Shown here: piece by piece, positions 3,458 through 52,816 of the stretch | Position numbering within the stretch: position 1 is the stretch's first letter | How the letters are laid out: each line of letters opens with the position of its first letter | Source: Eledone cirrhosa | Lineage: Eukaryota | Length of the DNA stretch: 64,000 bases | NCBI GenBank assembly: GCA_964016885.1 | Contig: OZ024750.1 | Coordinates: 13,144,001 to 13,208,000 of the forward strand | Direction of reading: 5' to 3' | Position numbers and translations under genes: made by a program | Notes under the pieces: model-generated | The model's database searches: none | Told to the model about the DNA's origin: nothing | What the model saw: the letters and a program-made list of their open reading frames with translations, nothing else

Positions 3458-3529
3458 ATACCAATAAGTATAGATTTATACAGATAGAAATAAATCGATT
3501 TATAATCATATAAATGCATATATATACAT

Positions 3530-3592
<63 letters not shown>

Positions 3593-8390: not shown

Positions 8391-8423
<33 letters not shown>

Positions 8424-8598
8424 TATATATATATATACATACACATATATATACATATATACATATATATATACATATATATATATACATATACGTACAT
8501 ATATACATATATATATACATATATATATATACATATACATATATATACATATACATATATATATATATACATATACATATATATATATATACATATAC

Positions 8599-8629
<31 letters not shown>

Positions 8630-8920
8630 CATATATATATACATATATATACATATATATATACATATATATATACATATATACATATATATATATACAT
8701 ATATATACACGTATATATATATATATACATACACATATATTTATACATATATATATATATATACATACACACATATATATATATACATACACATATATAT
8801 ACAGATACACACATATATATATATACATACACATATATATACATACACATATATATATACATACACATATATATATATATACACATATATATATATACAC
8901 ATATGCATATATATATATAT
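7575..8920. repeat. Compound (TA/CA/GA) microsatellite, ~1.35 kb
   Basis: Repeated atatatagatacatatatac units; source of the spurious Y/I/C/M ORFs. Confidence 0.95.
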
Positions 8921-9061
8921 TTATTAAAATAACAGATTAAAGTTTAAGCAAAGAATCGCTGCTTTGACCCTTAACGGGATCTTCTGAAACTAACAAAGTC
9001 AATCTGTAAACGCAGATTTTAGTCTTCAAATTTATTATTATTACTATTATATATAAAGGAA

Positions 9062-22512: not shown

Positions 22513-22793
22513 TTACTGCCATAGACAACAGAAAAAACAGCACCAAAAACAGCAACCAAAACTTAAGAGCCACGCCATGAATCGTATGAACATCATAACC
22601 ATAATCATGGCCAATAGGAAGGTCTGCATGCTGGCATCCCCAACATTTGTGGGTTCCCCACCTTCTGTTGAAGCTGCTTCAGTTGTTTCCTTCTTGGTTG
22701 TTGCTTCAGTAACTGTTTCTACAGTTTGTTGGGTGATTATTGTCGTTTCTGTTCTTTCAAGCAATGGCTTCACTTCTGCTACAGGTAATGGTT
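22513..22793 (-). CDS. Terminal coding exon: Thr/Glu-rich stalk, then a hydrophobic segment and CCxxCCxxCC tail (putative tail anchor)
   Basis: Acceptor tttgtttatttcttgctttaacag at 22794, phase 1; ORF 22513..22773; ends with tandem stops TAA TAA TGA. Confidence 0.75.
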
Positions 22794-27000: not shown

Positions 27001-30000
27001 TTCCCTGTAGAAATTTTTAAAGCATAAAACCAAATTTATGCAAAAAAAAGGTTTAATCTGTGAACTGTAAATATTACAGTCAGAGTTGCAACATTTCATA
27101 AAACTAAAGATTAATATCAGACTTATATCAAGATTAATATAAAGTTACTTAAATTATATGATATAAATTCAATAATAAATCAGTAACTATATTAATCAAG
27201 AAATTTATATTAATCAATTCAAGGAGTTGAAACAATAGCAAATATATATATATAGCCTTTAATATATCTGCAATATATTGACTGACTTGAGAATGAGCAC
27301 TCAGTACTAAGGTAGAGTTTAAATATTCTTTATTATGGCAAAGTGGTGAGTCTTGTTACTCTGGAGGATCATCAGACAATTCTTGTCTAACGATACTGTG
27401 AGTACACTGTTGATCCAGAATAATAATACTCCCCACATAGAATTGCTTTTAACAGAGAAATAATTTGTGTAGAAATATTATGCCAAATCCAAAAGTAAAA
27501 ATAGATAACTATATTTTAAATGTTTCAAATAAAATAGAATATATATATAGTGAAAAGATTACGTAATTTGTATTAATAAATATGTTACCTCAAATAAATT
27601 ATTTAACTAATTTAATCATTATTGGACAAAAATTAGACCTATTCAGTTTAATGTCTTGTTGAAAGACAGTAGGTGACAAGACCTACTGCCAGATATATGA
27701 GTTGCTGATGAAAGTAATACAAAATCTCAGTCCTTGTTAAGTATTGGGTTTTTCAGGAATCAAATTTAATCATTCATACTTCCTGTCGAATATATTTTAA
27801 TCCAATATTACAGTATTATCATCACCACCATTTAATGTCCATTTTCCATGCTAGCATGGGTTAGTCGAGCTGTCCCATTGTGAGACAAGGCAGGTCAGAT
27901 TACCATGTCTTGCTCATACAGAATTGATTACAGCTGGATGTGCTTCCTAATACCAACCACATTTACAGTGTGGACTGGGTGCTTTTTGTCAGATCTACAC
28001 TGACAATATCTTGTCCCTTTTCATTTTAAATTTAGGAGTAATGGATAGCCAATGTTATTTTTCTTTAAAGGTTATTACTTACAGCAACAAACATTCAAAA
28101 TACCTTCTTTTTACTAGTCATTCATTTAACCCAAATTATATATATTATATATATTTTTGATTTCAAAGAATATTACAAATATAGTTTTAAGATGTTTGAA
28201 ATCAGATTTTATGCATCTAAGATTAATTTGGAACTTTCAATTATTAATATTTAATTATCTTACAACAGCAGATAATCTATATTTTATTTTTCTATCAATT
28301 TGTTTATTCTGTGGGTTTAAATATAAATATATTTATTCTTTGATACCTGCTTTTAAAATTGAAAATGTTACAACATTAATTTATAAATATGAAATAATTA
28401 TTTAATTTATCTTTTGACATCATTACAGCAGCTTCAGCAATAGTTTGCTTGTTAGATTTCTGAAAGGGAAATATCAATTCAATGAAAAATGTGCATATCA
28501 CATCGAAGACATTAAAATAACAATTAATATAAGTAAAGCAAGCCACAAAACAGAGAAAGCAACAAGGTTAAATTTTGTTTGATTTCAATCTAAACTGTAC
28601 AATTTATAAGAAATAATTATTTTCAATAAAAGATCAATAAAAATGTTTAATTATAAATGAATATTTGGTTATATTACAATGTAAGTTGACATATGAAATA
28701 CTTTGAATTGTTAGAAACAAATCAGGAAAAGTTTTGACTAATAGATACAAAGTTGTATTTGAACAGTATTATTAATTTCGATCATTTTTAATGGAGAAAG
28801 CCTTAAAAACATTCAAGCAAGAAACAAGAAAAAGCAAAGCACAGTAAAGAAATATAGGGTGGTAGTGCTTTTGTTTGCATTCGTATAAGATATAATGGCT
28901 TGTGCTGGTTAAAAAGCCGATGATTTTACATTCTAATTTTGTTTTATTTTTACTTACGTAATACTGTAACATAGGCAGTAGATACATATGAACCAGCATC
29001 ATTTTCAATTCTCACTTTATATTCGCCTTCATCTTCTAGTATTGCTTGTTTAACAACAATCATAGTTCTATTTTCTTCAATCACAATTGAGAATTCTTCA
29101 GTAGATTCAATAACTACATCTTCAAAATACCATGTAATTGATGGTCTGGGATATGCCTCAAATATTATTTCAAGAGTAAATGTGTCTCTTTCATGTATAG
29201 AAATATCATGGAAATCTTTTATAATTTCCAATTTAGTAGATTTTCTATGAACCTCAGATACACCAATGGTCTTTTCGGCATACTCAGTTCGTTTTTCAAT
29301 TTCTCTAACTTTAGTTGTAGAATCCTTTTTAATGAGTCTAATTTCTTTCTCAAACTCTGGTTGTTCAGGTTCTTTAGGATATGTACCAACTGTTTCTATG
29401 GTGAAAGTTTGTTTTTCTCTTACATTTAGCTGTTCAGGAGTCCTAACTTCAATATGCATTTCCTCAAATTTCGGTTTGGGAGAAATTACTAGACCCTCTT
29501 TAAATACAGCAGTTTCATCAACTGGTTGTTCTTTCCTTTCAGATGTAATTTTCTCTGTAACCCTCTGGACAACCTCTACAGTCTCTTTGACATCAACATC
29601 AACCTTTTTCTCAGGCTTAATTATCATGTGAACTTCCTTAAACCCTGGTTTAGGAGAGATTTCCAATCCTTCTTTAAATACAGCAGTTTCATCAACTGGT
29701 TGTTCTTTCCTTTCAGATGTAATTTTCTCTGTAACCCTCTGGACAACCTCTACAGTCTCTTTGACATCAACATCAACCTTTCTCTCAGGCTTAATTACCA
29801 TGTGAACTTCCTTAAACCCTGGTTTAGGAGAGATTTCCAATCCTTCTTTAAATACAGCAGTTTCATCAACTGGTTCTTCCTTTCTTTCAGAGGTAATTTC
29901 CTCTGTAACCCTCTGGGCAAACTCTACAGTCTCTTTGACATCAACATCAACCTTTCTCTCGGGCTTAATTACCATGTGAACTTCCTTAAACCCTGGTTTA

Positions 30001-33000
30001 GGAGAGATTTCCAATCCTTCTTTAAATACAGCAGTTTCATCAACTGGTTGTTCTTTTCTTTCAGAGGTAATTTCCTCTGTAACCCTCTGGGCAAACTCTA
30101 CAGTCTCTTTGACATCAACATCAACCTTTCTCTCAGGCTTAATTACCATGTGAACTTCCTTAAACCCTGGTTTAGGAGATATTTCCAATCCTTCTTTAAA
30201 TACAGCAGTTTCATCAACTGGTTGTTCTTTCCTTTCAGATGTAATTTTCTCTGTAACCCTCTGGACAACCTCTACAGTCTCTTTGACATCAACATCAACC
30301 TTTTTCTCGGGCTTAATTATCATGTGAACTTCCTTATATCCTGGTTTAGGAGATATTTCCAAACCTTCTTTAAATATTGCAGTCTCATCAACTGGTTCTT
30401 CCTTTCTTTTGGGAATTGTTTCCTCCTGTGTAACCTTCTGGACAACTTCAACAGTCTCTTTGACTTCAACCTGTTTCTCAGGAACAATTTCCATGTAAAT
30501 TTCTTGTAATTTTGGTTTTGTTTTCACATTTACAGATTCTTTGAACAAACTTGTTTCTGAGATTGCTACATCCTTTTGGATGTTTTCAGAAACATTTATT
30601 CTAATATCACTCTTTTTAGGACGTGTTACAGTAATATCTTTATCTACTTTGAATTTCTCTTCAACTTCCACAAAAATAGGTACATGTTCTGCTAATGTAA
30701 CTTCGTGCTGCACAAGATTTGATACAGAAATTGTCTTTTCCACTTTTTCTTTTGGTTTGATTTGAACCATAACTTTTGAAGTTTTATCTTTAGTAATAAC
30801 CTCTTCTCTTGCAGGTGAAATTTCACTTTCCATAGGAATATCTATACATTCTTTGAAATCTTCAAGACTTTCCTTGTCTTCTTCAGAAGGTTCAAAAGCA
30901 TCTTCAAATGATTCCTCCTCAATTTCTACAGGTTTATCTTCAAATACATTTACTTCTTCTGATACTGTTGGTGTTGCCATATCAATAATTTCAGTAATTT
31001 GAATTTCTGCTGAAATAGGAATTTCTCTAGGAATAATTATTAATTTATCAATACTAGTTTCTTGTGGAATTTCCTTAGCTAAAATGGATCCTTGAGTAAC
31101 AGAGGTCTTTTGAGAAGCAGCTGATTGAACAATTTCAGAAGTTGGTTCTACAGTACATACTTCTGTAATGTTTTCATATGAAGATTCTATAACTGTAGTA
31201 TCTGGCATTTCATCAACCTTGATTTCTTTTTGCACAATTAAAGCATGTTCTTTTGTTGTTTCACTGGTATCATAATCAAATGATGCCCCAACAGGAGAGC
31301 TCTCTCTAGGAACAACAACTAATAGGTCAAGAATTGTTTCTTCTGATGAACCTTGAACATTAATTTCTTGCTTTTCTGCTAATTCATGTGTATCCCTATC
31401 TGATGCAATAAGCTCAGATTCCATTTCAACTGGTGATGGCTCTCGTGGGAAAATTTCTACATTTTCTGGTGCCAAATCTTCAGGTAAGACTGCAACATTT
31501 TGAGGATGTTTCTCCATAATCACATGTTTCTCTACATCTTTAGATTCTGTAACTTCAGATGTAGTTTCAACTGGTGATGGCTCTCGTGGGAAAATATTGA
31601 CATTTTCTGCTGGGAGATCTTCAGGTAAGACTGCAACATTTTGAGGATGTTTCTCCATAATCACATGTTTCTCTACATCTTTAGATTCTGTAACTTCAGG
31701 TGTAGTTTCAACTGGAGAAGGTTCCCGTGGGAAAATCTCAACATTTTCTGCTGGGAGATCTTCAGGTAGGACTGCAACATTTTGAGGATGTTTTTCCATA
31801 ATCACATGTTTCTCTATATCTTTAGATTCTGTAACTTCAGGTGTAGTTTCAACTGGAGAAGGTTCCCGTGGGAAAATTTCGACATTTTCTGCTGGGAGAT
31901 CTTCAGGTAAGACTGCAACATTTTGAAGATGTTTTTCCATAATTACATGCTGTTCTACACCTTTAGATTCTGTAACTTCAGGTGTAGTTTCAACTGGAGA
32001 AGGTTCCCGTGGGAAAATTTCGACATTTTCTGCTGGGAGATCTTCAGGTAAGACTGCAACATTTTGAAGATGTTTTTCTGTAGTCATGTGTTGCTCTACA
32101 CCTTTAGAATCAATAACTTCGGGTGTAGTTTCAACTGGAGAAGGTTCCCGTGGGAAAATTTCGACATTTTCTGCTGGGAGATCTTCAGGTAAGACTGCAA
32201 CATTTTGAAGATGTTTTTCTGTAGTCATGTGTTGCTCTACACCTTTAGAATCAATGACTTCAGGTGTAGTTTCAACTGGGGATGGTTCCCGTGGGAAAAT
32301 CTCAACATTTTCTGCTGGGAGAACTTCAGGTAAGACTGCCACATTTTGAGGTTGTTTTTCTGTAATCACGTGTTGTTCTACACCTTTAGATTCAATGACT
32401 TTGGGTGTAGGTTCAACTGGTGTTGGTTCTTGATAAACTGCATCGGTATTTTCAGGAGTTATTTCCTCTGGTATTAGTTCAACAAGCTGCACTGGTTTTT
32501 CTATCAACTGAATATCTTTTGTGTCTTTAGATTCTATGCTTTCAAGAATCATCTCTACTGGAGTTGCTTCTTCAACAAAATTTTCACTTTTCTCCATTGG
32601 TACATGATCTAACATTTCATTTATACAAACTTCAGTTTTAGCTGTGATTTCTGCTTTATTTACGACTACATTTTCCGATGTTTCTGATTGTATATTTTCA
32701 AATTGTGTAGAAATACTTGATGATACTTTTTCTTCATTAACAGTTTCTTTAGACTCCTGAATGAAGTGTATTTCCATTTTTTCTGATGAGATTGTATCAG
32801 GTTCATCTACGTCCAATAACATATTAGTAGGCTCTAACATAAGAACATTTTTAAAGCTAGATTCTACACCTACATCTTTAGTCATCTCAGTTTTTACGGT
32901 TTCGGTGACTACTTCTTTTTGAGTATCAACATTTATAGTTATCATGTCAACAAAATTTGATTCTTTTGCTTCAGTAATTATTTTAACTTCTTCTTTGAAT

Positions 33001-36000
33001 AATTGTTCAGGAGATATAGTAAATTGTATTTCCTTCGTTTTAACTTCTGGTGACAATACAACTTCGGTCTTGAAATTTGAAACCTCTACTGGTTTAATCT
33101 GAATGCTTTGAACTATGACTTCTTTCTCAGTATGATGTACTTTTCTAACATCAGGATGGACTTCGGATTCAACAACTTCCTCTTGAATGCATTCTTCAAA
33201 ATGATCTTCACCACTGTCATCAGAAACTGGCTCAATACATTCTTCAAATATCTCTTCACTTTCAAAGCTTTCAGCCTTTTTAATTTCAGTTGTATAGGAT
33301 CTGCCAACTATTTCAATATCAACTTGTTCAAATACTGGTTTAGCATCTACTGAAATCTCTTCCACAAATGTTTTAGTAACTTCCTTAGATTCTTCTTCAA
33401 TTTCAACATCAGAAGAAGGACCAGAAGCAGCTGAAAGAAATATCATTCAAGGTAAACGTTTCTCTTAAAGATTCTAAAAAGAAAATCCAGGAGTCACATA
33501 GTCTATTAATTATAATAAATAATGGTAGTAACCTTTCATTGACAATTAGTTTTAAACAATATTTTTAACCCCCTATAAATAAAACCATTTAAGCCATATC
33601 AAAATCTATTTTCCTCTCAATTACTTTAAATGTAAACTTTAATTGAGAATTTCTGTTAATTTTTGTTTAGTAAACATCTAAAATAAATATGTTTAGCAAT
33701 TATTAGATAGTTGGTCCTATTATCATTATACAATATTTTGTTCAAATTTCTGACATGTAAAAATCTATAATATTGTCATTAATCAATGACTTTTGTGTAA
33801 GACATTTTTAAAGCTTCTCTTAATATAGTATTACACCATGAAATTTTATTTACACCTGAAACAAGAATTTTATCAATAAAATTATTTAAATAGCTGAAAA
33901 GATAACTTATTGATTACTTTTTTGTATAAATAAATATTATTTTAAGTTTAACAAAATTTGTTATAATTTAAAACAATATGTTTTATAATATAAATAAAAA
34001 AAAGATAGATTTGCTTAAATTTTCAAATGCACTCAAATACAAGACATAATTTATGACTTAAAAATCAATACTCCAAAAACAAGGATGAATTAATAGCATA
34101 TATTAAAATACATTTAACATTATTGAAAACTAAGAAATTAATAGATTGAATATATTTTGAATAAATATGTTTATTTTTTAAAATAGTTATTATTATCTGC
34201 TGCTACTTCTCCAAATTGAGAGAACACAGTTCCGATATTATCGACATGTGTTTAGAATGTCTCTGGAAAGAATGTTTAGCTTGGAGATCAGAGAGTCACT
34301 CCAGGTAGAACTGCTACTTCTCCAAACTGAGAGAACACAGCTCCGATATTATTGACATGTGGTTAGAATGTCTCAGGAAAAGCATTGGACAGATTTCATG
34401 ACCAAAGCCATCTGGCAGCAGGAGACCCAGGGGTAGATCCTGAGCAAGATGGTTGGATAACATCCATGAGGTTGGCTGGTCTCACTTGGGGATCCAGCCA
34501 GATCAGTTGGAGATGGATGCTTCTGACAGGACCTGCTGGAAGGAGTGTTTGAGGACTCTGCCACCCATGACCCTTTCATGAATAAGTGGGAGAAGAAGAA
34601 GATATTTGTTATATTTATTATTAGCTATTTATAGATGTGTCCTTATTGTTACTGTCAGCCATTTTTATTCAATGTAAATACTATGTCTTTGTTGTTTTCA
34701 TATGTATTTTGCTTTTGCACCCTCCCCACATCTTAGAAATTATTATTATTATTCGGTAGATTGGTAAAATTGGTAGGGCATTAGACAATATGCTTTAGAG
34801 CATAGAGTTACGGCCCATTACGTTCTGAGTTCAAATCCTACCGAGGTTAGCTTTGCCTTTCATCCTTACATGGTCAATAAAATAAAATACCAGTAATGCA
34901 CTGGAGTCAATTTAATCAACTTTCTCCTCCCCAAAAATTGTTGATCTTGTGCCTAAATCAGAAACCATCATTAACATTATTACTAATTATTATTGATAAG
35001 TGCTGTAAAGCAAGAGATATGTCTCTAGCAAGTCAAGTGTATAAAATAGTTTTAATTCCATGTTAAAGTCATGCAGGATGCTAATGTCTTTGAAAATATA
35101 TAAACATCTAAATTAACTATTTTCCCTCACTTAAAATACAATTTTTTGTGCCAAGTCAAAAGGAAACCAATATATTAAGTTCAATTTTGACTCCAAATTC
35201 ACAAATGTTTCCACACCCAGGCATGTACTGAAATAGAGTCAATCTACTTCCCTAAAAATCTGTGACCTTTCACCAATGTAAAGAAAAATCATTATTTTTG
35301 GCCTGTACTTAAAAGCAAGAAGAACAAATATATATACTGTATATACTCGAATATAAGCCAATCTGAATATAAGTTGATCCCTTATTTTATGTTTGAGAAA
35401 TAGGCAAAAATCCAAACTCAGTTTATATGCTGAGGTTGGTAATCAACACATTATGTTTAGATGGGGTGGTTACCAAATTTTAATGTTTTAAGTGTCATTT
35501 AGAGTATAGTTTTTGTTTCACAACGCCATTACATAATGATGATTTTTTACCACTTTCTAACAGTTTTGAAGGCCAAATTCATTCAAAACATATAAAAAAA
35601 AACAATAGGAAATACAGATTTCATGTAGAAATTAAAACAAAAATATTTTAGCACCTCATTAATGTAGAATTTTGAAGTTGGTGATAATTGGCAAAATATT
35701 GACCTCAAATATAAGCCGACCTGTTTTACCATCAATTTTTTAGTCAAATATTTAAAGACTTATACACGAGTATATACAGTAGGTCTGCTATATGGGTGTC
35801 AATTTCAAATAGAGTAATTTCACTTTATTTACATTGATAATAAGAAAGGCATAAATATCATATCATCACGTTTTCTGTCAAGTTATAAAAAATATTATTA
35901 TTTTTTGTTGCTATAAAAGAAAGCATCATTATCATTGTCCTTATAACTATTATTCTTATTATTATTTCCAGCTATACACACCAATTGTAAAATATTTTCT

Positions 36001-39000
36001 TAAATTTATCAAGTGTTTTAAGATTATTCAACCTTTATATTTGTTCTCTGATCAGAAAACTTTCTGCAAGTGAAAATATCTTAAGTTAAACAGTTTATAA
36101 AACCTTATAAATTATATGGGGTTGTCTATAAAGAATTACAAGTAAGAAATTATTTCTCAAATATGGTGCATTCATAATAAGAAATGGAAATATAATTTTA
36201 AATATTGGTACTTACGAAATACAGTAATATAAGCTGAAGATGTTACTCTGCCATATTCATTTGTTGCAACAACAGTGTATAAACCTTCATCTTCGGGGAA
36301 CACTTCTTCAACAATGTATTCAGAGCGATAACCTTCTTGTCTGATGATAACTCCTGGGGAAGGAGCAAGTTCGATTTCATTCAAATACCATTTTACTTCA
36401 GGAATAGGTGAACCACTCACAAATATTTCCATATGGAGAACTTGGTTTTCAACAACAGAAATATCTTTTAAGCTGACTTCAAATGAAGGCATTTGACTTT
36501 CTTCCATTGTTTCAGTAATAACTTCCGTTACAAGGTTTTCAACATAGTTTTCCAAAATCTCTGGTACATCCTCACATTCAGCTTTCAAGGTTTCAATAGG
36601 CATGTCTTTAGTTACAGCTTTTTCTGTTGGTAGATGTTCAACTTCACTCAATTTTGGTTGTTCTAATTCTTCTTGAACAGAATGAGTTGTAGTTTCTCTG
36701 ATTGGTTGTGTTTTCACAGATTGAGTATCCAACTCAACTCCAATAACACTCAAGTTCATCAAATCTTGCTGTTTCAAGTCATCTGTTATGGCTTGCTCAA
36801 CAACTTCTTCAAGTGGTTGTGTTTGAGTAAGAGCGGCATCACAGGGTTTATATTTCACATCTAAATCTTGTACACAATATGGTTTTTCCATATTTTCAGT
36901 TTTATTTTCTTCTAGTTGCTTGACTTCAGGGATTTCAAAAATCTCTTCAAGAACAACACTCTTTGCTATTTTGGGAGAAATATGACCAGTGGTCTCTTCA
37001 GGAGCTTCTACTTCCTCAACAACTGGTTGAGATGAAGTCTCTTCATCCAATGGTGTTATTGAAGATACCTCAGTAAATTCCTCTAGTGTAAGAGATTTGG
37101 TCATGATTGGCATTGATTTTTCAGCCATTTCTTTCACTGATTTCATTTCAGCACTGCTAAGTTTTTCCTCCACTTTTTCAACAAAATCTACAACTTCTGG
37201 TACTTCTATTATAGATTCATCAGGAGCAGCTTGAGTTTCTTTCTCAACTCTCTGTTCATATCGTTCTTGAGAGCTGCTCACACCTTCACTCTTCAGAGTC
37301 TCCATAGGAGCTTCTTCAAGATCCATTGTAGTTACATGTTCTGTAATTTCTTCTAAAGCAAATGCCTTGGCTGAGGTAGGATATGTTTTCTCAGGTTTAG
37401 TTGTAACTTGTTTAATTTCCTGTGTACTGGGTTTATGTTCCATTTTTTCAGGAAGATTCATTATTTCTGGTTGTTCTAACATTTCTATTTCTACAGCTGT
37501 TTTACTTTCAATAGGAAGATTTTGTAGGTATTGTTCCTTTATAGATGAAACTTCACCAGAAACAATTGTTTCTTTTACTGCCTCTTGAACATGACTTGCA
37601 GTTGATTCTTCAATAAGTTCTTGCATTGCAACAGTTTTAGCTGCAGCTGGTAACTGCTTCTCAATATTTATAGTAATAACCTTATCAATTTCTTGAACAG
37701 TTGTCTTCTCTTCAATGTTTTCACTGATATTAGATACATCTGGATGGTCAATAACAACAGTTGCAATATCAACATTAGTTTCCTTTGGTAAATGTTGATC
37801 TGTTTCATGTACAACAGTAACAATTTCTTCTCCTAAAGTTGTTTCCTCATCTACTTCCTTAACATGTGTTACAACATTTTCAGCAACCTCTTCGGAAAGG
37901 ACAGTTGACTTAGAAATAACAGGTGAATCAATTTCAAATGTTTCAGCAATTACCTGTACTTCAGAAGAAACTGTTTTTTCTTCAGCTTTACCATCAATAT
38001 CAAATACTTCTGGTTGTTCTACACTTTCCAGTCCAACAGCGACTTTACTTTCTTTGGCATGTTTCTCTTCAACTTGACGGATATCCAGTGTGATTTCTTC
38101 CATTTCAGTTGTTTCTTCAGGAAGTTCTTGTAATTGAGTCACAACAGATTCTTCTGTTAATTCTTTCAAGACAACAGATTTAGCAACTGTTGGCTGTTGT
38201 TTTTCAGCTTCAAACATAACACCAGGAATACTTGCAACATTTGTCTTCTCTTCAACTTTGCTATCAATGTCAACTACCTCGGGTTGCTCTACACTTTCCA
38301 TCTCAACAGAGACTTTAGTCTCTTTGGCGTGTTTCTCTTCAACTTTATGAATATCTAAAGTAATTTCTTCCATTGCAGTTGTTTCTTCAGAAAATTCTTG
38401 TAACTCTGTCAGTACCGATTCTTCAGTGACTTCCTTGATAACGGCAGACTTAGCAACAGTTGGTTGTTGTTTCTCGGCCTCTTTAGTAACAGCTTGTATT
38501 TTCTCAATATGAGTTTGTTCTTCAACTTTACGATCGATATCAACTACCTCTGGTTGTTCCAAACTTTCCATTTCAACAGCAACTTTGCTTTCTTTGGCAT
38601 GTTTCTGTTCAACTTTATGAATATCAAAAGTGATTTCTGCCATATCAGTTGTTTCTTCAGAAAGTTCCTGTAATTCTGTAACAATAGATTCTTCAGTGAC
38701 TTCTTTCATAGCAACAGACTTTGCAACTGTTGGTTGTCGTTTCTCAGCTTCTGTAGTAACTCCAGGAACATTTTGTACAGTTGTTTGTTCTTCAACACTG
38801 CTAATAATTTGAAATACTTGTGGTTGATCCACACTTTCCATTTCAAGTGAAACCTTGCTTTCTTCTGCAAGTTTCTGTTCTACATGCTGTACAACATTAT
38901 CAATGTCCCTCGTTACAGGTGTCTCTATTTTCTGATCAAAATCAAATATTTGTGGTTGTTCCAATTGTTCAGTCTCAACCTTTTCAACAACCTTTGTTTC

Positions 39001-41874
39001 AGTAGCAAATCCTTTCACGTGTTGCTGTGAAACAGGAGCAACTGGTTCAGATTTCACTTGTTCTTCTACAACTGACTGCAATTCACTCAATTGAGTTTGG
39101 TCTGGGATTTGCATCTGTGATGCAGCTCTAGCAGAGATTGCTGATTCAATATCTGCTTTTTGGATAGAATCTTTAATTAATTGTGATGTGGCTTGTAATT
39201 CAGTAATTTCTTTCTCATCAATATCAGTAGTTGACTCTGGTTCACTAGTCAATACCATTTCAATAGTTTTAGCAGGTAGGTATTGTCTTTCAGCCATTGT
39301 AGTTTCTGTAGTTCTCGTAGAAACTTCAACAACTGATGTCTCTTCTTGAATCAATTTCTTAACTTCTTCAAAAGAGAGTTGTTTTAATTCAGTTTCTTCC
39401 AATATTGGTTTTGGAGATGGAGCTTCCTGTGATGAAGCTTCTTCGCTATCAGGAATATATTCATATGCTGGAATATTGAAATTAGAGAGATTAGACTTAG
39501 GAATCCATTTATTGAAAGAAAACATTAATTAGGTATACTAAAATCATGAAGTTTATAATATTCACTAGCTAAATATTATTAGTTACTATGATAATTCTTT
39601 TCTGTATTACTTTTGATGAAAAATGCAATAAATTTAGCTTTAGAATATAACAAAATAATAATAATAAATAAAATATATATTTCCATTTAAGTAATTTTTG
39701 TTGTTTTTATTTTGAAACAAAATTTATAAGAAGACATTCCAAATATTTTCTTATAATCAACATATACATAACATTTACAATGCAAAGTTAATAGATTCAG
39801 AAACTATTTATGTTGTCATGCAAAATAAATATAAATAAACATTAATGATGAACAATGAATGAGTGAGAAATAAAGAAAGTAGCTAAAGACTTACATAACA
39901 AATTATAACTAGACAATGAAAGCAGCTCAAACAAATATAAATATATTTTAATATAAATGTAACGCATTCTATATTTCTTTTACAATAATGCTTATACAGT
40001 CAGCAATTTCAGAATTTTACAAGCAGTCTATTAAAATAATTTACTATTAAAATAAAGTTGTTACTCTATACTACATATAAGCTTAAGCAGTTGATTTTTA
40101 ACCCTTTAGCATTTAATTTACTCTATATTTACTATTGTATTTTCACAGTAAACACTTTATTTCACATAATTATCTCACATATCGAGTCTACGAGATTTTG
40201 ATTTTTTTTTTAGAACAATATCTTAACATAAGTATGAGCAGCCAGTTATGGCCGGTTTGAACAGAAAGAGATGAGAGAATTCTGGCCAGATATGGCTGGT
40301 TTAAATACTAAAGGGTTAATAAACTTTATTTTCTATAACAATAACACGATCTGTAATTTATTAATGTTTATATAGCAAAACATAGTTTATTTCCATATGC
40401 TAATATATCTAATAAATAAAATGAGTGCCTTAATTATCACCAGATTAAGTTCTTAATGGAAGACAAAATCACTCATGATTAAATCAAACCATATTTAATA
40501 GTGACATTTGTGCTTCTGACCCACTGTTTCCTCTAAACACTTCAATGTTACTTGAGGTGTGAAACAAAGCAGCTATGTTATCAATTCCTAAGAAATACAA
40601 ATCTGTTTAATTATATTAGCTAATGTTTGGAAATTGTTGCTGCTGCCAACATTCATAACATAATGAAGAGAATCATGAATGATAATTTGTGATGATACTG
40701 AAACTTAATGTTAAGCAAGAGTATTCAGATAATTTAGCTGAGAAGTGAAGTGAGTAACAGAATGCTTTGGTGGATTTGAGAACAGTTTTAAGGAATGAAT
40801 GAATAATATTTTGCAGGTATAATATTTTGCATTCTAATTGCTTCTACCTGCTTGTAAACTAATAGAAATATTTGCAGCCACCCCCTAATTGAACAGATAG
40901 TGGTAAGGATAGTGAGATTTAAATGAGTGCTCTGCCATTATGTGAACCAAAATCTTTAGAAGTAGATATTTCAATAGAATTATAACTTATTTAAGATAAT
41001 TAATATATGAATTAATTTCAAGGGCATTCCATCCATTTGTTTCATAGATAACAATTTAATTTCCTAGAATACATTATTTCATGCATTGTCATAGAAATTA
41101 ATGAAGCTTCAATATTTAATTATATAATCAATAATAACGAAACAAAATAATCTGTAATAAAAGAAATGTTAGTAAAGATGAATGCAATGGAATTACTTCA
41201 AGTAGAGATAAATGGAGTTAATAGATAATGAGAATAATGGACAAGCTGAAATTATAGAGAATTATTTTAGATATATCAATAGAAATATCTGAAATCTATA
41301 TAATAATTTTACTAAGAAAATATAAATTTTTAGGCAAATATTCAAGCAAGATGCAGAGACGAAATTCAGCATGGTCATGGCTCTCAATAGCAGAAGCATA
41401 ATATGTTGTAGTCATTAGCAGTTTTATGCATTATGCTTCTAATCATTAGAACAAGACAAGTAACTGAGGCAACAACTAATTCTATGATGCTTCTAGGACC
41501 TGCAACAAGTATCACTTACATTCTATTTCCAAATATGCTCTGCTTACAGCAGTACCTAGCTCATTGGTTGCTTCACATTTATATTCACCAGCATCTTGTG
41601 GGAATACTTCAGTTATTAATAAAGAACAACTTCCAGTTTCTTTATTGTAAACAGATTTGAAATCTTGGTTTTCAGAAATAGGCACCTCTTCGTGAGACCA
41701 AACTATTTCTGGTTTTGGCTGGCCATCTACCTCACAGTGGAACTTTACTTCTTCACCATCCATTACTTTCAATGACATCAAACTCCAAGTAAATATAGGT
41801 GCTTTACCAGCTGCCTCAACAACTTCTTCTTCAACTGGTTTCTCTTCCTCTTTATCCTTTTTAATCTCTTCAGT

Positions 41875-41906
<32 letters not shown>

Positions 41907-44900
41907 TTGGTTCTGGTTTTGGTTCATCTTTCAACACAATTGTTTCTTGAGAAATAGCGGTCACCTCTACTGGTTGCTCAGGTATTTCAGCAGCCTCTAC
42001 AATTGGTTTATCAGTTGCTTCAGGAACCAGAATTACTTGAACTTCAGATTGCTGTGGTTTCATAACATGTTCTTTAACTTCAACTTCAATTCTTTGAGGT
42101 TGAAGAACTGGCTGTATTTCTTTCTGTGAAACAACTGTTGGTTCACTTTCAGGTTGTTCTTTATGAATTATTTCAATTGTTTCTTTATGGATGTCTTCAC
42201 GTTCAATAACTTCATCTTCCTTAACAGGAATTTCCTGAGAAGTTATTTGAGTTGTTGATTCATGAATTTCAGTTTCTGTTCTAGTTTCTGTTACAGGTTC
42301 ACTCATTTGGAATCGTAACTCTACAGGTGTAGGTTTTTCTTCTTTATCTACTGTTAAAGTGGTAGTATGTTTTTCAGTAGCTTTAACATCAGTTGGAAGT
42401 TCTTCAGTTTGTTCAAAATAAGAAGTTGTTGTAGATATTGTTCTGATTTCTGCTGTTTGAGTAACTTCTTCAGGTGCATCATAAAATAAGTCTGCTTCAG
42501 ATTCCCTTCGATCCTGACATTTAAATTCTAAATTTTCTTGATAAACAGTCTCATCAGGTAACTCAACTATTTGTGGTTGATCAACTATAATAGTTTGTTT
42601 ATGTGTTTCATCAGATTCTATAGCTTCACTACCAGATGAAGCTGAAATGAATTAAAACGCAAAACAAAACTTAAATGTGTATAATTAATGTTTGACCACC
42701 ATAAAACAACTAACAGTGATTATCTTTTGTAGATAAATGGGAAAGATTAACTAATAAGAAAATCTGAAACAAATGATTAATAAATATAAATTATGAATAG
42801 AATGAAATAAAATGTAATTTAATATATTTATTGATCCAAACGTGTCAAATCTTTAATAAAGCCACGGTTGTCGAAACTTAATGTTTCTGCATTTTATGGG
42901 AATAATTTCCATCATTTAAGTTAGAATATAACTTCGGATTATATCAGCACTTGAAGGAGATAAATTCACACAAACTCTAAGAATTAGGGGCTTCTCCAAA
43001 ACTAGTTTTAATTATATAAGTAAAACAAGTTTTTTTTTCAGTTTTTCGGATCTAAATGTTTCACTCTGCTAATCATATTTATAAATTCAATAGAAAAGGC
43101 TATGCCATATATATATATACTTTAGTGTCTAATTGTATACTTAAGTATTAGATTATTAAGACTGTTCCATCTGTAAGCTCTAACTGCAGGATCTAACAGA
43201 TTTTGGAAGGAGGACATAAAACTATGATGTATTATTCACTTAATCACTGGCATGAAACACACATCCATATCGAATATGAATGTGTGTGTTACAAGTCCCA
43301 CATGATATGTAGTTAATATTTAAGAAAACACCTATCAGTCAGGACACATGTTTCCTTGAAAATTAGAAACGTTTTTCTAGATAGCTTATAGCATTGTTTC
43401 TCTTTGATTTCCTGTATTTTATAATTAATTATGTTTATGCATGAAGTGAGTCTAGGCAGTAAAAATTGTAGAGTATTACATTAAATATATTACATTTTCC
43501 TTCTACACTTTCAACACTGACTAGTCAACTTTGTTATTCATTCCTAACAATAAAATAATCTCTGAAAATACATTAAGGTCAATTGGATCAACGACACATC
43601 TAAACCCATGAAAAATGTTCTTATGACTAATCAAAGGAAATCAATGATGATTATGAATGTATGAAATTTATTAGTATATTAAAGAATAAATAGGAAAAAA
43701 AGATACTAAAAAGATTTTTTTTTTTTTTCTTTGAAAACAAGTATACTTACATGCAACAGTGAGCTTGCAAGTTGTTATTGTTTCACCGCATTCATTTGTT
43801 GCAGAACAAGTATATTCTCCTTCATCTTCAGGGAATACTTCCACAATAATGAGAATACTTTCTTTCTGTTCATAATTTACAGTAATTTGTATATCATTAG
43901 TGGAAGTTATAACTTTACCATCATAAAACCATGTGATCTTTGGTAAAGGTTGGCCTGTGAAGCGTACTTTAAATTCTACTCTTTCCCCATCATGGACAGT
44001 TTGTGGCTGAAGTAATTCTGTGAATTCAGGAGCTGCTGACTCAGTAAGAGGTGCTTCAATTTCTACATTAAATACATACAAATTGGAACTCAGTAAAACC
44101 TTAGCAAACACAAATGTCCTTTTCAAAACTAATTTCAAAATCAGTCTTTGTACATAAATATTATTCTATTATTGTACCTCAGAATTAAGTCATATAATGA
44201 AGGTGCATGGCTTAGTAGTTAGAGAGTTGGATTCATAATCATGAGGTTGTGAGTTAGATTTTCGGCTGAGCGACATGTTATGTCCTTAAGCAAGACACTT
44301 TATTTCATGTTGCCCCTTCTTGCCAAGAGTTGCAGCAAGTAGATAGTATTAGTAATTGGAAAGACCAATGAAAACATTGTTTCCTTAGTCCAATCTGATG
44401 AGTTCCACCCCACTCAGTAAGCAAATGAGGTCTGTGATCTTGTCAATTCAGATCAAGGAATATTGTAATTGTAAACTTATTCAATTCCAGAACTGGAAAC
44501 TATTACATCTTAATTCATCAAAGACTTGTAGAACAAAGTCTTGATTTCAAATATTTGCAGCTTTTAACCTTTCTCATATAATAGAAAATACATTTTATTA
44601 TACTTACGTTTCATAACATTGATAGACGCTCTACTAATAGCTACTCCTTCTTTGTTTTCCATACGACAAATATACTCTCCAGAATCTTCATATGATGCAT
44701 TTACAATCAATAAGATTGATGTATTATGTTCAATAAACATTTTCCTGTTAGGTGTAGGTCGAACTTCAACCTCGTTGATATACCAGGAAACATTGGGTTC
44801 TCCAGTCAGTTGACATATTAGTCTAAATAAAAGAAAGTTTTGTTATGAAATGAAATGTTTTAAATGAATAAGCATTGATATCTCTTGTCGAGACAAGGTG

Positions 44901-47845
44901 AAAGTATATTAAAATTCATTGAAAAATGAGAAAACACTAGAATAGCTGTTAAAACAGCTAAATGCTGTCAAAGACAACACTGGGTAGAGATGCCTCAAGA
45001 CAGAGACCAGCATCCAGTGGTCAGCAGAGAGACAATGTTTTAAATTTAAAACTATATAAAAGGTAGAAATAGTTTATCAATAAAATAGATATGGACTTCA
45101 AGCTTGGCTTTATAAATAAAGTAAAATCTATATGATCATCACATGGTCATTAGAATAAAATACTCAATGTTTTATGTCTAATTTAGGTTTAATTACCTGA
45201 TAGGTTTTCCTTGATAGACATTAGCTGGTTCAACATAATGAGGTGACATCTGAATAGAAGTAATGTAACGTTCATCAACTAATCTGATGCTTTCATCAAC
45301 AGGAATTGTTGTCACAGATTTTGTTGTTGTTTCAGTTGTTGTGATAGAAGCTGAAAAATACAAAGAAAGATACATTTTTAGGGTTTTTTCTGAATAAAAT
45401 ATAAAAAGATGTAAATATTTACTTTGTATTTCTTGATTTAGTTAAATGATGTTAAAAAAACAATTGTGAGTAAAGATGTCAGATAAATAGTACTAAAATA
45501 TCTGAGAATATCTGAGTATATCTGACCTTATTAAAACTACTTAATTATTTAATATCAATCAGTTATCTTGGCATACGGTTACAAACTTATGGGGTAGAAG
45601 TGATCCAATTAGACCAATGCAAGACAATAACGTATTAACATTAGATCAATATCTAGTGAAATAAGATTGTAAAATAAACCCCATAAAATAAATTGATATT
45701 ACTTACTTTCAACAATAATAGTTGTAGAAGTCACAGACTCTCCATAAATGTTCCTGGCATGACAAGTATATTCTCCAGCATCTTCTGGATATACTTCAGT
45801 GATGATCAATGTACATCTGCCAGTTTCAATTTCAAACCTTATCTGGAAATCATTATTTGGTACAATCTCAATTGAATCTTTGTACCAAGTAATTTTCGGT
45901 TCAGGATAAGCATTCATTCTACAAGTGAGAGTGACTCGAGTGCCATCTTGAACAGTTTGAGGTTGTAAAGGTTCAACAAATTCAGGTGGAATAGCAGCAG
46001 GTTTGGCTTTCTGATCTGTCTTTTTAACGGGAATAATGACTTCTTCTTTCTTTGGTTCATGAACTGTAAGTCGAGCAGATGTAGCTGCCTGTCCGTATTG
46101 ATTGATGGCCATGCAGACATAATCTCCTTGATCTTCTGGGAGAGATTCCACAATATGGAGACAAATATCTCCAGTTTCTGGGATATATGAAATTACATAT
46201 TCATCATTATTGTCAATATTTGTTCCATTGTGGAACCAAGTAATATGAGGAACTGGTTGACCAACGACTTTGCAAGTCATTCTTATTTCTTGTCCATCAA
46301 CAATGTCCATTGTTTCTAAGTCCTTTACAAAGTTTGGTGGCACAAACTCTTCTGTGGGAGGTTCAACTTCAGTCTCAGGAGGGGGTGACATTTCTGCAGC
46401 AGGTTCTATTAAATAAACAATATAACATTAGGTATGACAGTAGTAAGGGTGTTGGACTTATAATCAAAATGTCATAGGTTCAATTCCTGCTCTGGGTTGT
46501 GTGTTGTGTTCTTGAGCAAAACATTTCATTTCACATTATTCCAGTATACTCAACTGAAAATGAGTACCAGCCATAGCTGGGGGTTTAACCCAGCGATGGA
46601 CTAGCATCCAGTCCAGGAGGGAGTCTTGTACACTCGGGGGTTTCATGTCAATGAAACCAAGATAAGTACTGGCCTGATGAACCTCCTGGCTTCAGAGAGA
46701 CTTTAGACTTAGAGATATTTAAATACTTTCTTTTTATAATTGTTAATAATTACAATAAAGAATGCATTTTATACATTTATTCAATTATAAAATTAAATTA
46801 TGTTTTAATATTCAAAGGAAAATGTTAACAACAGGTTTTGTATTAAGTATAAAATAAATTGATAATATAATATAAAATACCAAAAAATTACCTTGGACAT
46901 ATAAGGTAGTACTGCACACAGCTTCTCCTAATTCTGAAACTGCTCTGCAGGTATATTCACCAGTATCCTCAGGTCCAACATCAATAATGATCAGCAGACT
47001 TTTACCAGATTCATAAAAGATTTCATAATGTGGAGAAGGTTTGATTTCCATTCCATTAATATACCAAGTAATTAATGGAGGAGGATGAGCATCAACAGAA
47101 CATTCCAGTCTGGAAGATAAAATGATGTACATTTATTAAAAGACTATATATGTTATGGGCAAAGGTGTGTGGCTTTGGGATCAGGTATTCAGCTCATGAT
47201 CATAAGGTCATGAGTTTGATTCCCAGTGGTGCACTGAGTCATTGAGCAAGACACTTTCAGGTTGTTCCAGTCCACTCAGCTGGCAAAAATGAGTTGCACC
47301 AGTAAATTGATGGGGCAGTCTTGTCACATTCTGTTTCACACTGAATCTCCCTGAGAACTATGTTAAAGGTACGTGTGTTTGTGGAATGCTCAGCGACTCG
47401 CACGTAAATTTCATGACCTCTGAGAAATTATTATAACAGTATTATAAAGACAAAGGTAGAAATTTAGTGAAAATTTACCTTGCAATGCCTCTTTCTCGAA
47501 CAAATACTTCTGGTTGAATTGGTTCAACAAAAATAGGTCTGATTTCTCGCGTTTCAGTTGTGATTGTCTTTTCTTCTTTTTCAATCATTTTAATAGTAAC
47601 AGAATCAGTTACATCTGGGATTGGTACAACCTTTTGTTTTTCTGAAAAAACAAAATAACAATTACAATCTGGTTAGAGTCATCTTTAACAAGTTTACAAA
47701 TATAACTTTAATAATATATCAACCAGCCTTAGAAACCAAACCAAAATCAACTGTGTGGAAGCAAAACATGATCCTCCAATCTGGCTAGTCTCACAAAGAG
47801 ACAGCTCGTCTAACCCATGCTAGCGTGGCAAATGGATGTTAAACA

Positions 47846-47884
<39 letters not shown>

Positions 47885-50800
47885 AATAAAATAAATACTA
47901 ACCATCAAAAGTAATGGTTGTCCTGCATGTAATTTCACCAAGCTCATTTCCAACTCTGAGAACATATTCTCCAAGATCACTCTCATTGACATGAATGATG
48001 ATCAAGACTACAGTGTCTCCTTCTTGGAACATTTGATAATGTTCTGATGTTATGATTTCAACTCCATTGACATACCATTTCACCAATGGTGGAGGATAGG
48101 CCTCAACCCGAGCTTCTAGTCTGAAATTATATTTAAATTGAGAATGTTATAATACAATCTACAGCATATTATGAAGTAAAACAAAAACAAAAATCAGTGA
48201 AATTAATGGTCTATAACATTCAAAATAGAATAAGAAATACATTTTCAATTGGAAGATGACCCTGATGGTTTTTAACAAATAATTTAGGTTTTCTATTAAA
48301 TGCTTTCTTTTGTATTTTCAATTTAGCACTAGAAATTTTTTAAATTAAGATATTGTGAATAATTTAAGAATAGAAAATGGTGGTAATATAAATATACCTT
48401 GCAATTTGTCCTCGCTTTACTTTGTAGTTTTGAGAAAGTGATCTCTTAAATACAGGTATTTTGGGTTGAACTAATTGCATTCCTGCACGAGAAATTTTGT
48501 CTTCTGGCAACTCTTGTTCCTCTGTAAATGAATTTAGAATATTAAATTTCAATTTAAAGAACAGAAATTATTGATTCAATTTAACAATTATTGAATGTGA
48601 CAATTTGATATATGCATGCAGTTAAGAAAATCAAGGTTATTATAATTTGTGTTAAATATTGTTTTTAATTTAATAATTTCCCCAACTGCCAAATCAGAGA
48701 TTCTAACTATCATGCCTAATATGCAGAATATTGTGGAAATATAAATATCTTCTCATATAAGTTGTCAGTTAACAAATAATATTATCTATAAATAAACAGA
48801 ATATAATATCTTATAAAAGTATTTTTTCAAAATAATTATCTATAACTACTAGAATAATTAAAAGACAAATGTTTCACATATCACTTTTGAGATCTTTTAA
48901 ATTCCTTTTGATATACTTTACTTCAATTACTCTAGCTAAAACAGATTCATATGAAACAAACACCCTGAAGCACTCTTGTGAGTGCTCTAATAACTCAGCC
49001 AATTCATCATCTTAAGCTATATGTAGAATTATATGTGTATATATATATATACAAGACTAGAACTGTTTCATTCGAATGAAACAGTTTTGGTCCTGTAGAA
49101 GCCATTTCTATATTAAATATTTATACTCTGCTATGTATTGAGTACCTTACCTACTGTGGTTACCCCCGATTAAACCCGGGATACACACACATATATATAC
49201 ATATATACTAGTTTAAGAAATTTAGTATTAAAATGAAGTTTTAATACATGTGATATGTATACTAATTGAAATTTAATTATTGACAGAGAAACTTGAAGTT
49301 ATCATCCCAAAATCTCATTAATTTATAGAAATTACCTGTCTAAGTGTGCAGTTAAGAAGGACTTCCTTTCATGCTAAATATATGAACATGCAAAATATTT
49401 TCAACTGATAATTATTGCAAGTGATTTTAAAATTAATGAAGTATAAGATACTATAGTGCAATAAAATAAATAAATCATTTGAAAAATTAAATTAATGGAA
49501 TACTTACATTGTTAGAAGGTACATGCGTATGGATTTCTTAGCATATAGCAGTGATAACCAAAGGTTTTAATGGTGGTATTCAGACAGAAGAATCAAGTCA
49601 ATGCTTATAAAAATGCATGCAACATTTCTAAATTTAATAAGGACTGTTAAAAATATTTTCTTTATTTCAATTAAAAAAAAGTCATGCATAAAAAGTATAC
49701 ACAAAAATTATTTGGGAGTTTTATTAAAAAAACATTCAGAAAAAAATATTGTCCATGCAATTCATATGTCTTGCGGCGTTTTGTTAAACACTTGTTTATT
49801 AAAACAATATATAATGTATAAAATAAATTATATAATATTGTACAAAAAATATAAAAATATTCATGCTTTTTATAAAATCTTTGGGTTTTTTAAAAAATAA
49901 TAACAGAAATATATAAAATGTTAAACCAAGCAAGGTTCAATAAAATAATAGGAATATTATAATACCACTAGTAAATTAAAATTAAAAAAGACATAATAGT
50001 TTATATTTTATAGTATATAATATCTTATAGTATATAATATCTGCTATGCCATACATTTAACTGTACTCTGAGCTGGCAACGGATAGGCTCTGCCAGGTTT
50101 AAATCCCCCTGCAACTGCTGATGGAGTCATACAGTTGTAGGGGCATTTAAACCTAGCAGAGGCTATACTTCACCAGCTCAGGGTACAGTCAAGTTTTTCC
50201 AGAGCAATAGAGCAAGCTTGAAAGAAACGAAAACAAAAAATACAGGAAGATTCAACCTTAGTATTGAACTGGTACTTATCAACCTCAAATGGATAAAAGT
50301 TAAAGTTGACCTTGGTAGGATTTGAACTCAAAGCATAGTTAAGTCAGAAAAAATAACAAATACCACTATCAACTCTGTCACTTTGCCAGTTGTATAATAT
50401 TTACAGTATATAAAATATATATTATAAACAAACATTGTGTGTAAAGCTTGAACATTAGAACTAATGAACTGCTGAGGAAGTAAATTTATAAAAGATGTTG
50501 GATGCTCAAGAGCAGAAATTAACTCTAATTATACAGTCAGCTGTTATAAAATAACTTATAAAAATATAGTAAAGACTCCCAGAGTCAGAAAACCATGTTC
50601 CATCTCTAAAGGTCTTTACCCATTTTTTTATAAGCTATTCTATACCAACTGACTAATTTTCTGCATTTGAGCATCCTACATTTTCTATAAATATAATACT
50701 ATATATTTTCACAAATACAAAAAATATGATGCAAATTTACCATGCAATGGAAACTTTGATTTGGAAAATTTCACCATCATGCTCCATTTTAATTTTAGGT

Positions 50801-52782
50801 TATTGAACAATGAATAGAACATATTGGACTTACCTTGAACATAGAATTCAGCAGAACATTCAGCAACACCAGCACTGTTCCTTGCACGACAAGTGATAAG
50901 GCCACTATCTTCAGGGAATGCTTCTCTGATAGACAATATTGTTGTCTGGCCAACTCTCTCAATCTAAATCAGAAAGGAAAAGATTTTATTAATGTAAAAC
51001 ATATTCACTGATAAATGAATTTGTAAAGTCCATTAGGAGTATAAAGAAGACGAAATATATACAGGTAAAATTCCATTATAACGAATTCCATTATAACGAA
51101 AACCATTATAACGAAATTTATTTTCAATACTCGAGGTAACAAACAAACGCTCGATTTGTTTTGGGCAATCTCGTTATAAAGAATGTTTTGTTACAACAAA
51201 TTTTTTATGTGCCATGAATTTCATTGTGACGGAATTTCACTGTATTTAAAATGTCAGTAAAATTTTAAAATGGAGATTACTTGAATGTTTAAGAAAATGG
51301 ATTCTTTGGCTTTAAGTCAGAGAATAATTATATATATTGCAAGTATTGTGCTATTAATTTAACTAATGTATTCCAATAATATAAACACAGTGAAGCTGGT
51401 ATTAAATATAGTGCAGTATAGTAATTAATGGAGTTAGTGGCATCTTGAAAATTTATGATATTCATAAATATAATTTAAATTACCTTAAAGTCTCTCGTGT
51501 TCTTGATCTTTTTACCATTACGAAGCCAGGTAATTTCAGGATCAGGTTCTCCTGTAAATACTGCTTCGAAGTAAGTTGGATAACCTTCTTCGATAACAAT
51601 GTTAGAAATTGGTTTGATAAAACTGGGGGGTGTCACTGAAACACCAGGAGTTTCTGGTTCTGTTTCACTTTCAAGACCTACAAAAAAGAAACAATTATCA
51701 AATTAACGTATTTACTCAAATATAAGTCTGTCAAAATATAAGACATTTTTATGTCTGAGAAATAGGCAAAAATCTAAACCTTATTAATAAATCAACAACT
51801 TATATTTAGATGGCATGGTTTTAAATTGGCGAATATATTTATGAAATTTTGATATTTAAAATATTCTAAGTGTCATTTAGTTTTTGTTTCACAACTCCAT
51901 TACGTTTTCAATATGTTAATTAATTTTGCCAATTACGATGATTAACATAATGAAGAGAGTCAGGAAAATCTGTCCATAAATTAATTAAATATTTTAACTG
52001 TTATTTTGAAACCCTGCAAAATGAATTAAAATTGCCTAAGTAACTCACCAATAACATTGAGACGACAAACGCAGGAAATTTCCCCAGCAACATTTCTTGC
52101 GACACATCTATATAGACCCCTATCTTCTGGGAATGCTTCCAACAGAGTTAGGGTATGTACACCATCAGGAGTTGAGGTCATATTGAAATATTTGGAAGGT
52201 TTCACGAGTTGGTTATTACAGTACCATGTAACAACAGGTGCTAAAAAGATAAATAAAATGCAAATTAATATACAGTGCAAATATCACTAATTATAAAAAG
52301 ACAGATATCCAAGGAGGATATATAATTGAATGGAGCCTTTTATTCTTTCATTAGCACTCTATTACTCTATTATATGTTCCAGCAGACAGGCTGAAACAAT
52401 ACTGTGGCACAGAACTGTATTTTTTTATCTGTTATTCATCCAGTTTTCATACTTTTTCTATGAAATTTTACATTTGAATATGTGGATACTCTTCTTGCTG
52501 GTCAAGCATGACTCCCCTTAATGCCACACCTTCCTCCTTCAGCAAACAACAGGTTGTCTACCTCATGCTCTCATATCCACACACCAACATCCCAGCCTAG
52601 CTGAGAATACACGAGCCCTAATCTTGAACAGTGTTAGTGCTGGTTCTATGATAAAATGCACCCAATCCACACTGTAAAGTGGTAGTGCTAGTTCTATGAT
52701 AAAATACACCTAGTCCACACTGTGAAGTGATAGCACTGGTGTTACAATAAAAAGCACTATCCACCTTGTTATATATGATGAT

Positions 52783-52816
<34 letters not shown>

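Follow-up and report, generated by a model that had tools for sequence, protein, structure and literature searches.

FFAT-like motifs in the acidic spacers of a titin-like Eledone cirrhosa protein with a hydrophobic C-terminal tail: a candidate VAP-binding tether

Conventional FFAT motifs (a pair of phenylalanines within an acidic tract; OSBP type, EFFDAxE) are the ligands of VAPA, VAPB, and MOSPD2, and their binding proceeds by electrostatic capture, after which F2 and A5 enter two pockets (PMC7610837). Tandem FFAT motifs occur in RMDN3 (PTPIP51) and in Chlamydia IncV, both of which are membrane anchored (PMC7610837). The titin (connectin) family, including Sallimus-kettin, combines tandem I-set immunoglobulin (Ig) domains with long acidic or Pro/Lys-rich spacers that contain tandem repeats. 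Here, we describe a large minus-strand gene whose 3′ part lies in a 64,000-nucleotide stretch of Eledone cirrhosa contig OZ024750.1 (the window; AT-rich eukaryotic DNA of 31% GC). Its predicted product shares the Ig domains and repeat-containing spacers of the titin family, carries FFAT-like motifs in those spacers, and ends in a hydrophobic segment. Judging from the sequence, we consider the chances about even that at least one of these motifs binds VAP as a working FFAT motif.

An earlier note on this DNA had picked out five such motifs, and all five strings were recovered in frame on the minus strand where it had placed them (Table 1). One lies in exon E41, and the other four lie as two pairs in exon E28, where they do flank an array of 47-residue repeats, at gaps of ca. 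760 and ca. 500 bp. All five have the acidic tract and core pattern ascribed to them, with F or Y at position 2, an acidic residue at position 4, A or C at position 5, and an acidic flank. We scored them with the matrix of Table EV4 of PMC7705450, with position 4 set to D or E; this is an adaptation rather than the original Slee and Levine matrix, and scores could shift slightly, although by hand it reproduces the three conventional STARD3 scores (6.5, 2.5, and 1.5) given in that paper. With a score below 3 taken as strong (PMC8306308), the FFAT assignment held for four of the five (1, 1.5, 1.5, and 2.5) but not for HFEECIQ, which fails at 4.0. The scan also revealed SYFEQTE, a further FFAT-like site that the note had overlooked, and no site scoring ≤3 in exon E36.

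The likeness to conventional FFAT motifs extends to the acidic tract, F2, D/E4, A/C5, D/E7, and a disordered setting; the sites lie outside the Pfam I-set domains and, on a charge-hydropathy plot, fall to the disordered side of the boundary (a crude proxy for disorder). On this matrix, LFYDAPE in E41 departs from the ideal core at position 1 alone, whereas position 3 is E or K in the E28 motifs, one of which is the motif that fails the cutoff. Outside its Ig domain, E28 encodes five cysteines, and three of them occupy position 5 of an F-x-E-C core. A phospho-FFAT reading was rejected, as no phospho score of ≤3 occurs in the three big exons. Separately, five units of a 58-residue repeat in E28 (29497-30470, minus strand) contain [VI]FKEGLE, with G at position 5 and a score of 4.0, at 380 to 610 residues from the tail; these subthreshold look-alikes could add avidity or merely show the grammar of the repeat.

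Sites of this kind are much more frequent here than in shuffled sequence. The 2,666 non-Ig residues contain five sites scoring ≤2.5, a number that none of 1,000 shuffles reached under any scheme (means of 0.50, 0.59, and 0.68 for global, 50-residue, and 20-residue shuffles, respectively), and neither did any of 1,000 dipeptide-preserving shuffles (mean, 0.42). At a threshold of 3, the three shuffle window sizes matched the observed count in 1, 6, and 11 of 1,000 cases. The bare core, [FY]x[DE][AC]x[DE], occurs four times against 0.19 expected (0 of 2,000 shuffles). When each pair was counted only once in the dipeptide test, the count was matched in 0 of 1,000 shuffles at ≤1.5 and in 8 of 1,000 at ≤2.5.

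The two pairs proved to be copies of one cassette of ca. 60 residues and therefore are not independent of each other. Their protein alignment scores 77 (a value that includes the motifs themselves), where the best of 206 other windows reaches 49, and their DNA alignment scores 84, with 80 the highest value among 137 other windows; a duplication extending past the cassette was rejected (z of 0.5 for downstream sequence only). The second motif begins 16 residues after the first in copy 1 and 17 residues after it in copy 2. The copies are identical at 11 of 37 columns (30%); the cores account for 7 of these (in 14 columns) and the remainder for 4 (in 23 columns; Fisher P of 0.04), and positions 4 and 5 of the first motif read E-C in copy 1 and D-A in copy 2, all of which carry zero penalty. 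That the cores have been kept better than their flanks across the duplication is modest evidence of selection.

Several observations weigh against a VAP-binding function, however. The duplication itself lowers the number of independent motif origins, and the second aromatic residue (position 3) is missing from all four E28 motifs. False positives also arise with this matrix, as a buried Ig strand scores 2.0 and the reverse of the first motif (42466-42504) reaches 2.5, its acidic-aromatic core being almost symmetric. Among human proteins, 2,079 of 20,373 (about a tenth) fall below 3 with the sister phospho matrix (PMC7705450). Conservation in other molluscs, to which the earlier note had looked for support, was not borne out for LFYDAPE, the one motif open to this test. 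Orthologous exons can be aligned collinearly over the first 200 residues of E41, and LFYDAPE is kept at the aligned site in none of eight orthologues, so that it differs from a conventional FFAT motif in its lack of positional conservation across molluscs; in all eight with sequence there (nine were aligned), the column is instead a conserved xEIxxGxP-like element with no FFAT motif. The nearest relative, P0058, starts downstream of LFYDAPE.

In one lineage (P0005-P0009 and P0030-P0050), IFFDAPE or VFFDAPE (score of 1) was found in the orthologous exon of all 26 sequences examined, ca. 65 residues before the Ig domain and thus at a position different from that of LFYDAPE. IFFDAPE resembles the repeat unit of its own lineage (xSFTFQVPE, among F-x-[VI]-P-E units), and the 26 sequences form close groups, two representatives being identical at 842 of 1,077 positions (78%); because the unit is repeat-like and the sequences are closely related, its retention is weak evidence. 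It may be a convergent gain or an accident. A multi-Ig I-set protein of Lottia gigantea (P0001) has DFEECEL, close in form to the F-x-E-C motifs of this gene, at residues 159 to 165, in its acidic N-terminal region, together with a second site; both score 2.5. No E28 orthologue was found among proteins of 2,604 to 5,000 or 817 to 2,603 residues, and there was no full-length orthologue among 15 profile matches (P0059 was dropped, as it looks unrelated). Exact lookups of four open reading frames (ORFs) of the window found none of them, and the first motif region matched no PDB sequence at an E value of 10.

A null drawn from the family also is less favorable than the shuffles. It consisted of 13 orthologous E41-type ORFs, one per group (10,363 residues), so that it represents one exon in other species and may include real motifs; the set excluded P0005, P0006, P0007, P0009, members of clusters, profile hits that were short or doubtful, and nonorthologous Ig proteins. 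These ORFs contain six sites at ≤2.5 and one at ≤1.5, with 12 of the 13 having no site at ≤1.5 and 8 having none at ≤2.5. The excess in the Eledone protein over this null is marginal (conditional P of 0.029, 0.018, and 0.055 at ≤1.5, 2, and 2.5, respectively), and it weakens further when pairs are counted once (0.11, 0.06, and 0.27). The strict core, by comparison, occurs four times here and once in the 13 ORFs.

These results bear most directly on the strongest alternative, namely, that the motifs are a neutral by-product in which acidic, degenerate repeats and local duplication gave rise to FFAT look-alikes on a membrane-anchored spring that makes no contact with VAP. The spacers are ca. 19% Glu and have repeats of the forms [FYH]-x-E-x-[IL]-E and F-x-[VIA]-P-E, from which one or two substitutions would yield a look-alike and duplication would yield four copies. 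They contain 34 [FY]x[DE] sites, many within repeats, and the site frequency in orthologous exons (with pairs counted once), the unconserved position of LFYDAPE, and the setting of IFFDAPE amid repeat units all speak for such an origin. It accounts less well for the failure of all 1,000 dipeptide shuffles at ≤1.5 even with pairs counted once, for cores that outlast their flanks across a 30%-identical duplication with an E-C/D-A swap that stays within the allowed set, and for the recurrence of the strict core. We give this explanation a serious chance, although one short of even.

A single contig of run X2 spans two GT-AG introns, connecting 28958 with 24480 and 24343 with 22793 (the shorter sides are 135 to 138 letters); therefore, exon E28, with its four motifs, is spliced to the last exon. 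A second X2 contig extends to 22402, and runs X1, X3, and X4 gave unspliced pieces, so that the splice joints come from X2 alone. On the other side, the splice support amounts to one contig from one sample and covers the last two introns only. The six exons of Table 1 have AG/GT ends and phase 1 joins and together make 3,191 stop-free codons, from which we infer that E41 is on the same transcript as the tail.

The tail segment (22516-22641, minus strand) has six Cys, one Arg in midsegment, no acidic residue, a CCxxCCxxCC-type end, and no basic C-terminal flank. It accounts for the only 19-residue hydropathy windows above 1.6 in the 3,191 residues (maximum of 2.34 versus 1.04 elsewhere). As in tail-anchored proteins, then, a single hydrophobic segment stands at the extreme C-terminus of the transcript that carries the E28 motifs. 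It probably is a membrane anchor and, by its sequence, may take the form of a hairpin, a single pass, or a palmitoylated amphipathic anchor. The combination of titin-type Ig domains with one C-terminal hydrophobic segment in 3,191 residues suggests that the chain may be cytosolic; its N-terminus, where a signal peptide might occur, lies outside the window. A C-terminal hydrophobic helix with five or six cysteines is shared with the CYSTM/CYSPD proteins, whose tails are palmitoylated and reside at the plasma membrane in yeast (PMC10840359). However, CYSTM proteins are only 60 to 150 residues long, and the present tail has ca. 20 extra hydrophobic residues in front. Membership in that family is not supported, and neither Pfam (at E values of 1 and 10) nor the Atlas yielded a match to it or any other relative of the tail.

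Were the tail instead to insert into the endoplasmic reticulum (ER) or sarcoplasmic reticulum (SR), the motifs could be real and the protein would link the SR to the myofibril without bridging two membranes. Such a link would be an obscurin-like role. The tail is long and strongly hydrophobic, and by general tail-anchor rules a tail of this kind, without a basic C-terminal flank, points to ER insertion first. The SR, moreover, runs between dense bodies (PMC4757648). A six-Cys end that resembles the palmitoylated CYSTM/CYSPD tails, by eye only and with no Pfam match, argues the other way. We regard this arrangement as improbable and count its share within the even chance given above to at least one working FFAT motif.

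It is very unlikely that the motifs were selected for another ligand, such as an endocytic adaptor appendage, or as redox or metal sites formed by the paired Cys. In favor of such a reading, selection has retained the cassette, Cys occurs in three of its four motifs and a second aromatic residue in none, and FEDAF matches the AP-2 motif FxDxF. Against it, FxDxF fits just one of six sites, the LC3-interacting region consensus [WFY]xx[ILV] fits, by inspection from the first aromatic residue, none of the five motifs of the earlier note, and one Cys has been swapped for Ala, which suits position 5 of an FFAT motif and not a redox role.

If VAP binding is accepted, RMDN3/PTPIP51 and IncV are among the closest counterparts. 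Those are small proteins. Like them, the Eledone protein is predicted to be membrane anchored and has FFAT-type motifs paired side by side in a disordered arm (PMC7610837), but it is a multi-Ig giant, its E28 pairs lie 770 to 1,570 residues from the anchor, and the motifs are of the conventional rather than the phospho type. With titin and Sallimus it shares the overall plan, tandem I-set Ig domains and long low-complexity spacers being what defines a titin/connectin-like giant, and departs from them in its hydrophobic, Cys-rich tail. To our knowledge, no such tail is present in titin or Sallimus. Since the conservation of LFYDAPE failed and VAP binding is only predicted, we do not class the Eledone protein as an established FFAT protein. 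Complex prediction of a VAP MSP domain with the SFEDAFE/DFKECID segment, run without alignments, with peptides outside the tested range, and with an animal-type stand-in (Pfam MSP) from a metagenome locus as the MSP domain, returned scores of 0.03 and 0.02, where the mark is 0.34; these weigh in neither direction.

The earlier note had gone further and proposed an elastic tether, a reading that gains from scores that beat the shuffles, the disordered context, the pocket residues, and the splicing of the tail, and loses from the lack of conservation of LFYDAPE and the marginal excess over orthologous exons. In the reading that we favor, the protein would be a cytoplasmic, titin-family giant whose I-set Ig domains are parted by very long, acidic, disordered spacers and whose C-terminus is held at a membrane by the hydrophobic, Cys-rich tail. 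The working FFAT motifs most likely would be LFYDAPE and the pair SFEDAFE/DFKECID. Their acidic tracts would be attracted to the basic face of the VAP MSP domain, with F2 and A/C5 entering its two pockets, and the tandem spacing of 16 to 17 residues could engage a VAP dimer. The chain would thereby be pinned to the ER or SR at ca. 800, ca. 1,550, and ca. 3,000 residues from the tail. If the tail resides in the sarcolemma, the result would be a flexible tether of the SR to both sarcolemma and myofibril, placed at peripheral couplings; as a coil, the ca. 780 residues between the nearest pair and the tail could span a contact gap of 10 to 30 nm. In the fullest version of the scheme, the tandem pairs would hold VAP dimers on the SR at stepped distances down the acidic spring, the tail would be palmitoylated, and the FFAT motifs would have been gained independently in different mollusc lineages.

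Cephalopod fibers have no T-tubules, and their SR is found among the dense bodies and, at the points of contact between Z elements and sarcolemma, in peripheral couplings (PMC4757648). This ultrastructure fits a tether but is no test of one. VAP binding, tail insertion or palmitoylation, membrane identity, muscle expression, Z-element anchoring, and elasticity are the steps that we infer. On balance, we think it unlikely that the whole scheme, with Ig arrays at Z elements, FFAT motifs on SR VAP, and the tail in the sarcolemma, is correct.

Table 1. Motifs, exons, and repeats of the titin-like gene, in window coordinates
Feature	Position	Strand	Matrix score	Details
Upstream I-set Ig exons and Pro/Lys-rich stretch	44567..63242	minus		Linkage to 3′ exons presumed
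Exon with one I-set Ig domain	43751..44062	minus		Phase 1; Pfam, AG/GT ends
Exon E41, 374 codons	41520..42641	minus		Acidic spacer and I-set Ig; splicing to neighbors presumed from AG/GT sites and open frame
Motif ESEADLFYDAPEE	42466-42504	minus		Exon E41
Core LFYDAPE	42469..42489	minus	1.0	Exon E41; 3,036 residues from C-terminus
Core SYFEQTE	42403..42423	minus	2.0	Matrix scan; Q, not A/C, at pocket position 5
Exon E36, 1,084 codons	36216..39467	minus		Acidic spacer with 90-residue repeats (37972-38880) and I-set Ig
Exon E28, 1,491 codons	28958..33430	minus		Both motif pairs, 47- and 58-residue repeats, last I-set Ig
Motif ESEEIFEECIE	33231-33263	minus		First motif, cassette copy 1
Core IFEECIE	33231..33251	minus	2.5
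Motif SGEDHFEECIQ	33183-33215	minus		Second motif, cassette copy 1
Core HFEECIQ	33183..33203	minus	4.0
47-residue tandem repeat array	31424..32420	minus		141 bp, 7.1 copies, 93% matches; between motif pairs
Motif EEESFEDAFE	30891-30920	minus		First motif, cassette copy 2
Core SFEDAFE	30891..30911	minus	1.5	789 residues from C-terminus
Motif SLEDFKECID	30840-30869	minus		Second motif, cassette copy 2
Core DFKECID	30840..30860	minus	1.5
58-residue tandem repeat array	29497..30470	minus		174 bp, 5.6 copies; [VI]FKEGLE within units
Penultimate exon, 46 codons	24343..24480	minus		Both junctions on single spliced contig, run X2
Last coding exon	22513..22793	minus		T/E-rich linker, then hydrophobic C-terminal segment of ca. 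40 residues; spliced (run X2), hydropathy

As to the rest of the gene, of 11 stretches scanned with Pfam, 7 contained I-set Ig domains, 6 exceeding the curated cutoff, and titin was the top solved-structure match of its Ig exons in a PDB search; neither Fn3 nor kinase domains were seen in the exons scanned. The Ig domain of E41 is 56 to 69% identical to those of mollusc orthologues, including a scallop entry labeled titin-like (P0004), and the best matches of the upstream exons are generic Ig proteins (29 to 50% identity). The upstream exons presumably belong to the same gene, the start of which probably lies beyond the window. The Ig exons and linkers at 57157-59708 (minus strand) appear similar to insect kettin/Sallimus repeats, and 63054-63242 (minus strand) is Pro/Lys/Val-rich and PEVK-like.

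The large spacer-plus-Ig exons within 28958-44062 are of phase 1 at both ends and have lengths divisible by 3; therefore, each could be skipped, tuning the length of the spring or the number of motifs. In the intron after E28, a pyrimidine-rich AG acceptor at ca. 28459 is followed by a stop within three codons and would give an isoform without the tail, although no joint supporting this short alternative last exon was present among the joints listed (a further 905 lie beyond these). Intronic sequences at 24700-25660 and 27820-28060 have a summed contig depth of 10^5 to 10^6, and similar text recurs elsewhere in the window; they are very high-copy interspersed repeats that probably resemble short interspersed nuclear elements. 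Elsewhere, very long, degenerate TA/CA microsatellite tracts occupy 3404-4247 (0.8 kb) and 7581-8924 (1.3 kb).

In the literature on FFAT motifs with titin or muscle, on tail-anchored titin-like giants, and on FFAT motifs in molluscs, we found no such arrangement described, and nothing relevant on kettin in molluscs; subscription papers fell mostly outside this search. The placement of mollusc SR at Z elements and the sarcolemma without T-tubules is known ultrastructurally, and the excerpted passages name no molecular tether (PMC4757648). The motifs are not broadly conserved, and their origin could be accidental. In its working, the arrangement would combine a titin-type spring with a tandem-FFAT tether. 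Even should the motifs be inert, a spliced hydrophobic tail on a titin-like protein is unusual. If the VAP-binding reading is true, such a protein, titin-like but with a membrane tail and motifs for VAP, would connect two fields, the giant sarcomeric springs and the FFAT-VAP contact sites, and in the full scheme the tether would assemble or place the peripheral couplings that, in obliquely striated muscle, stand in place of T-tubule triads.

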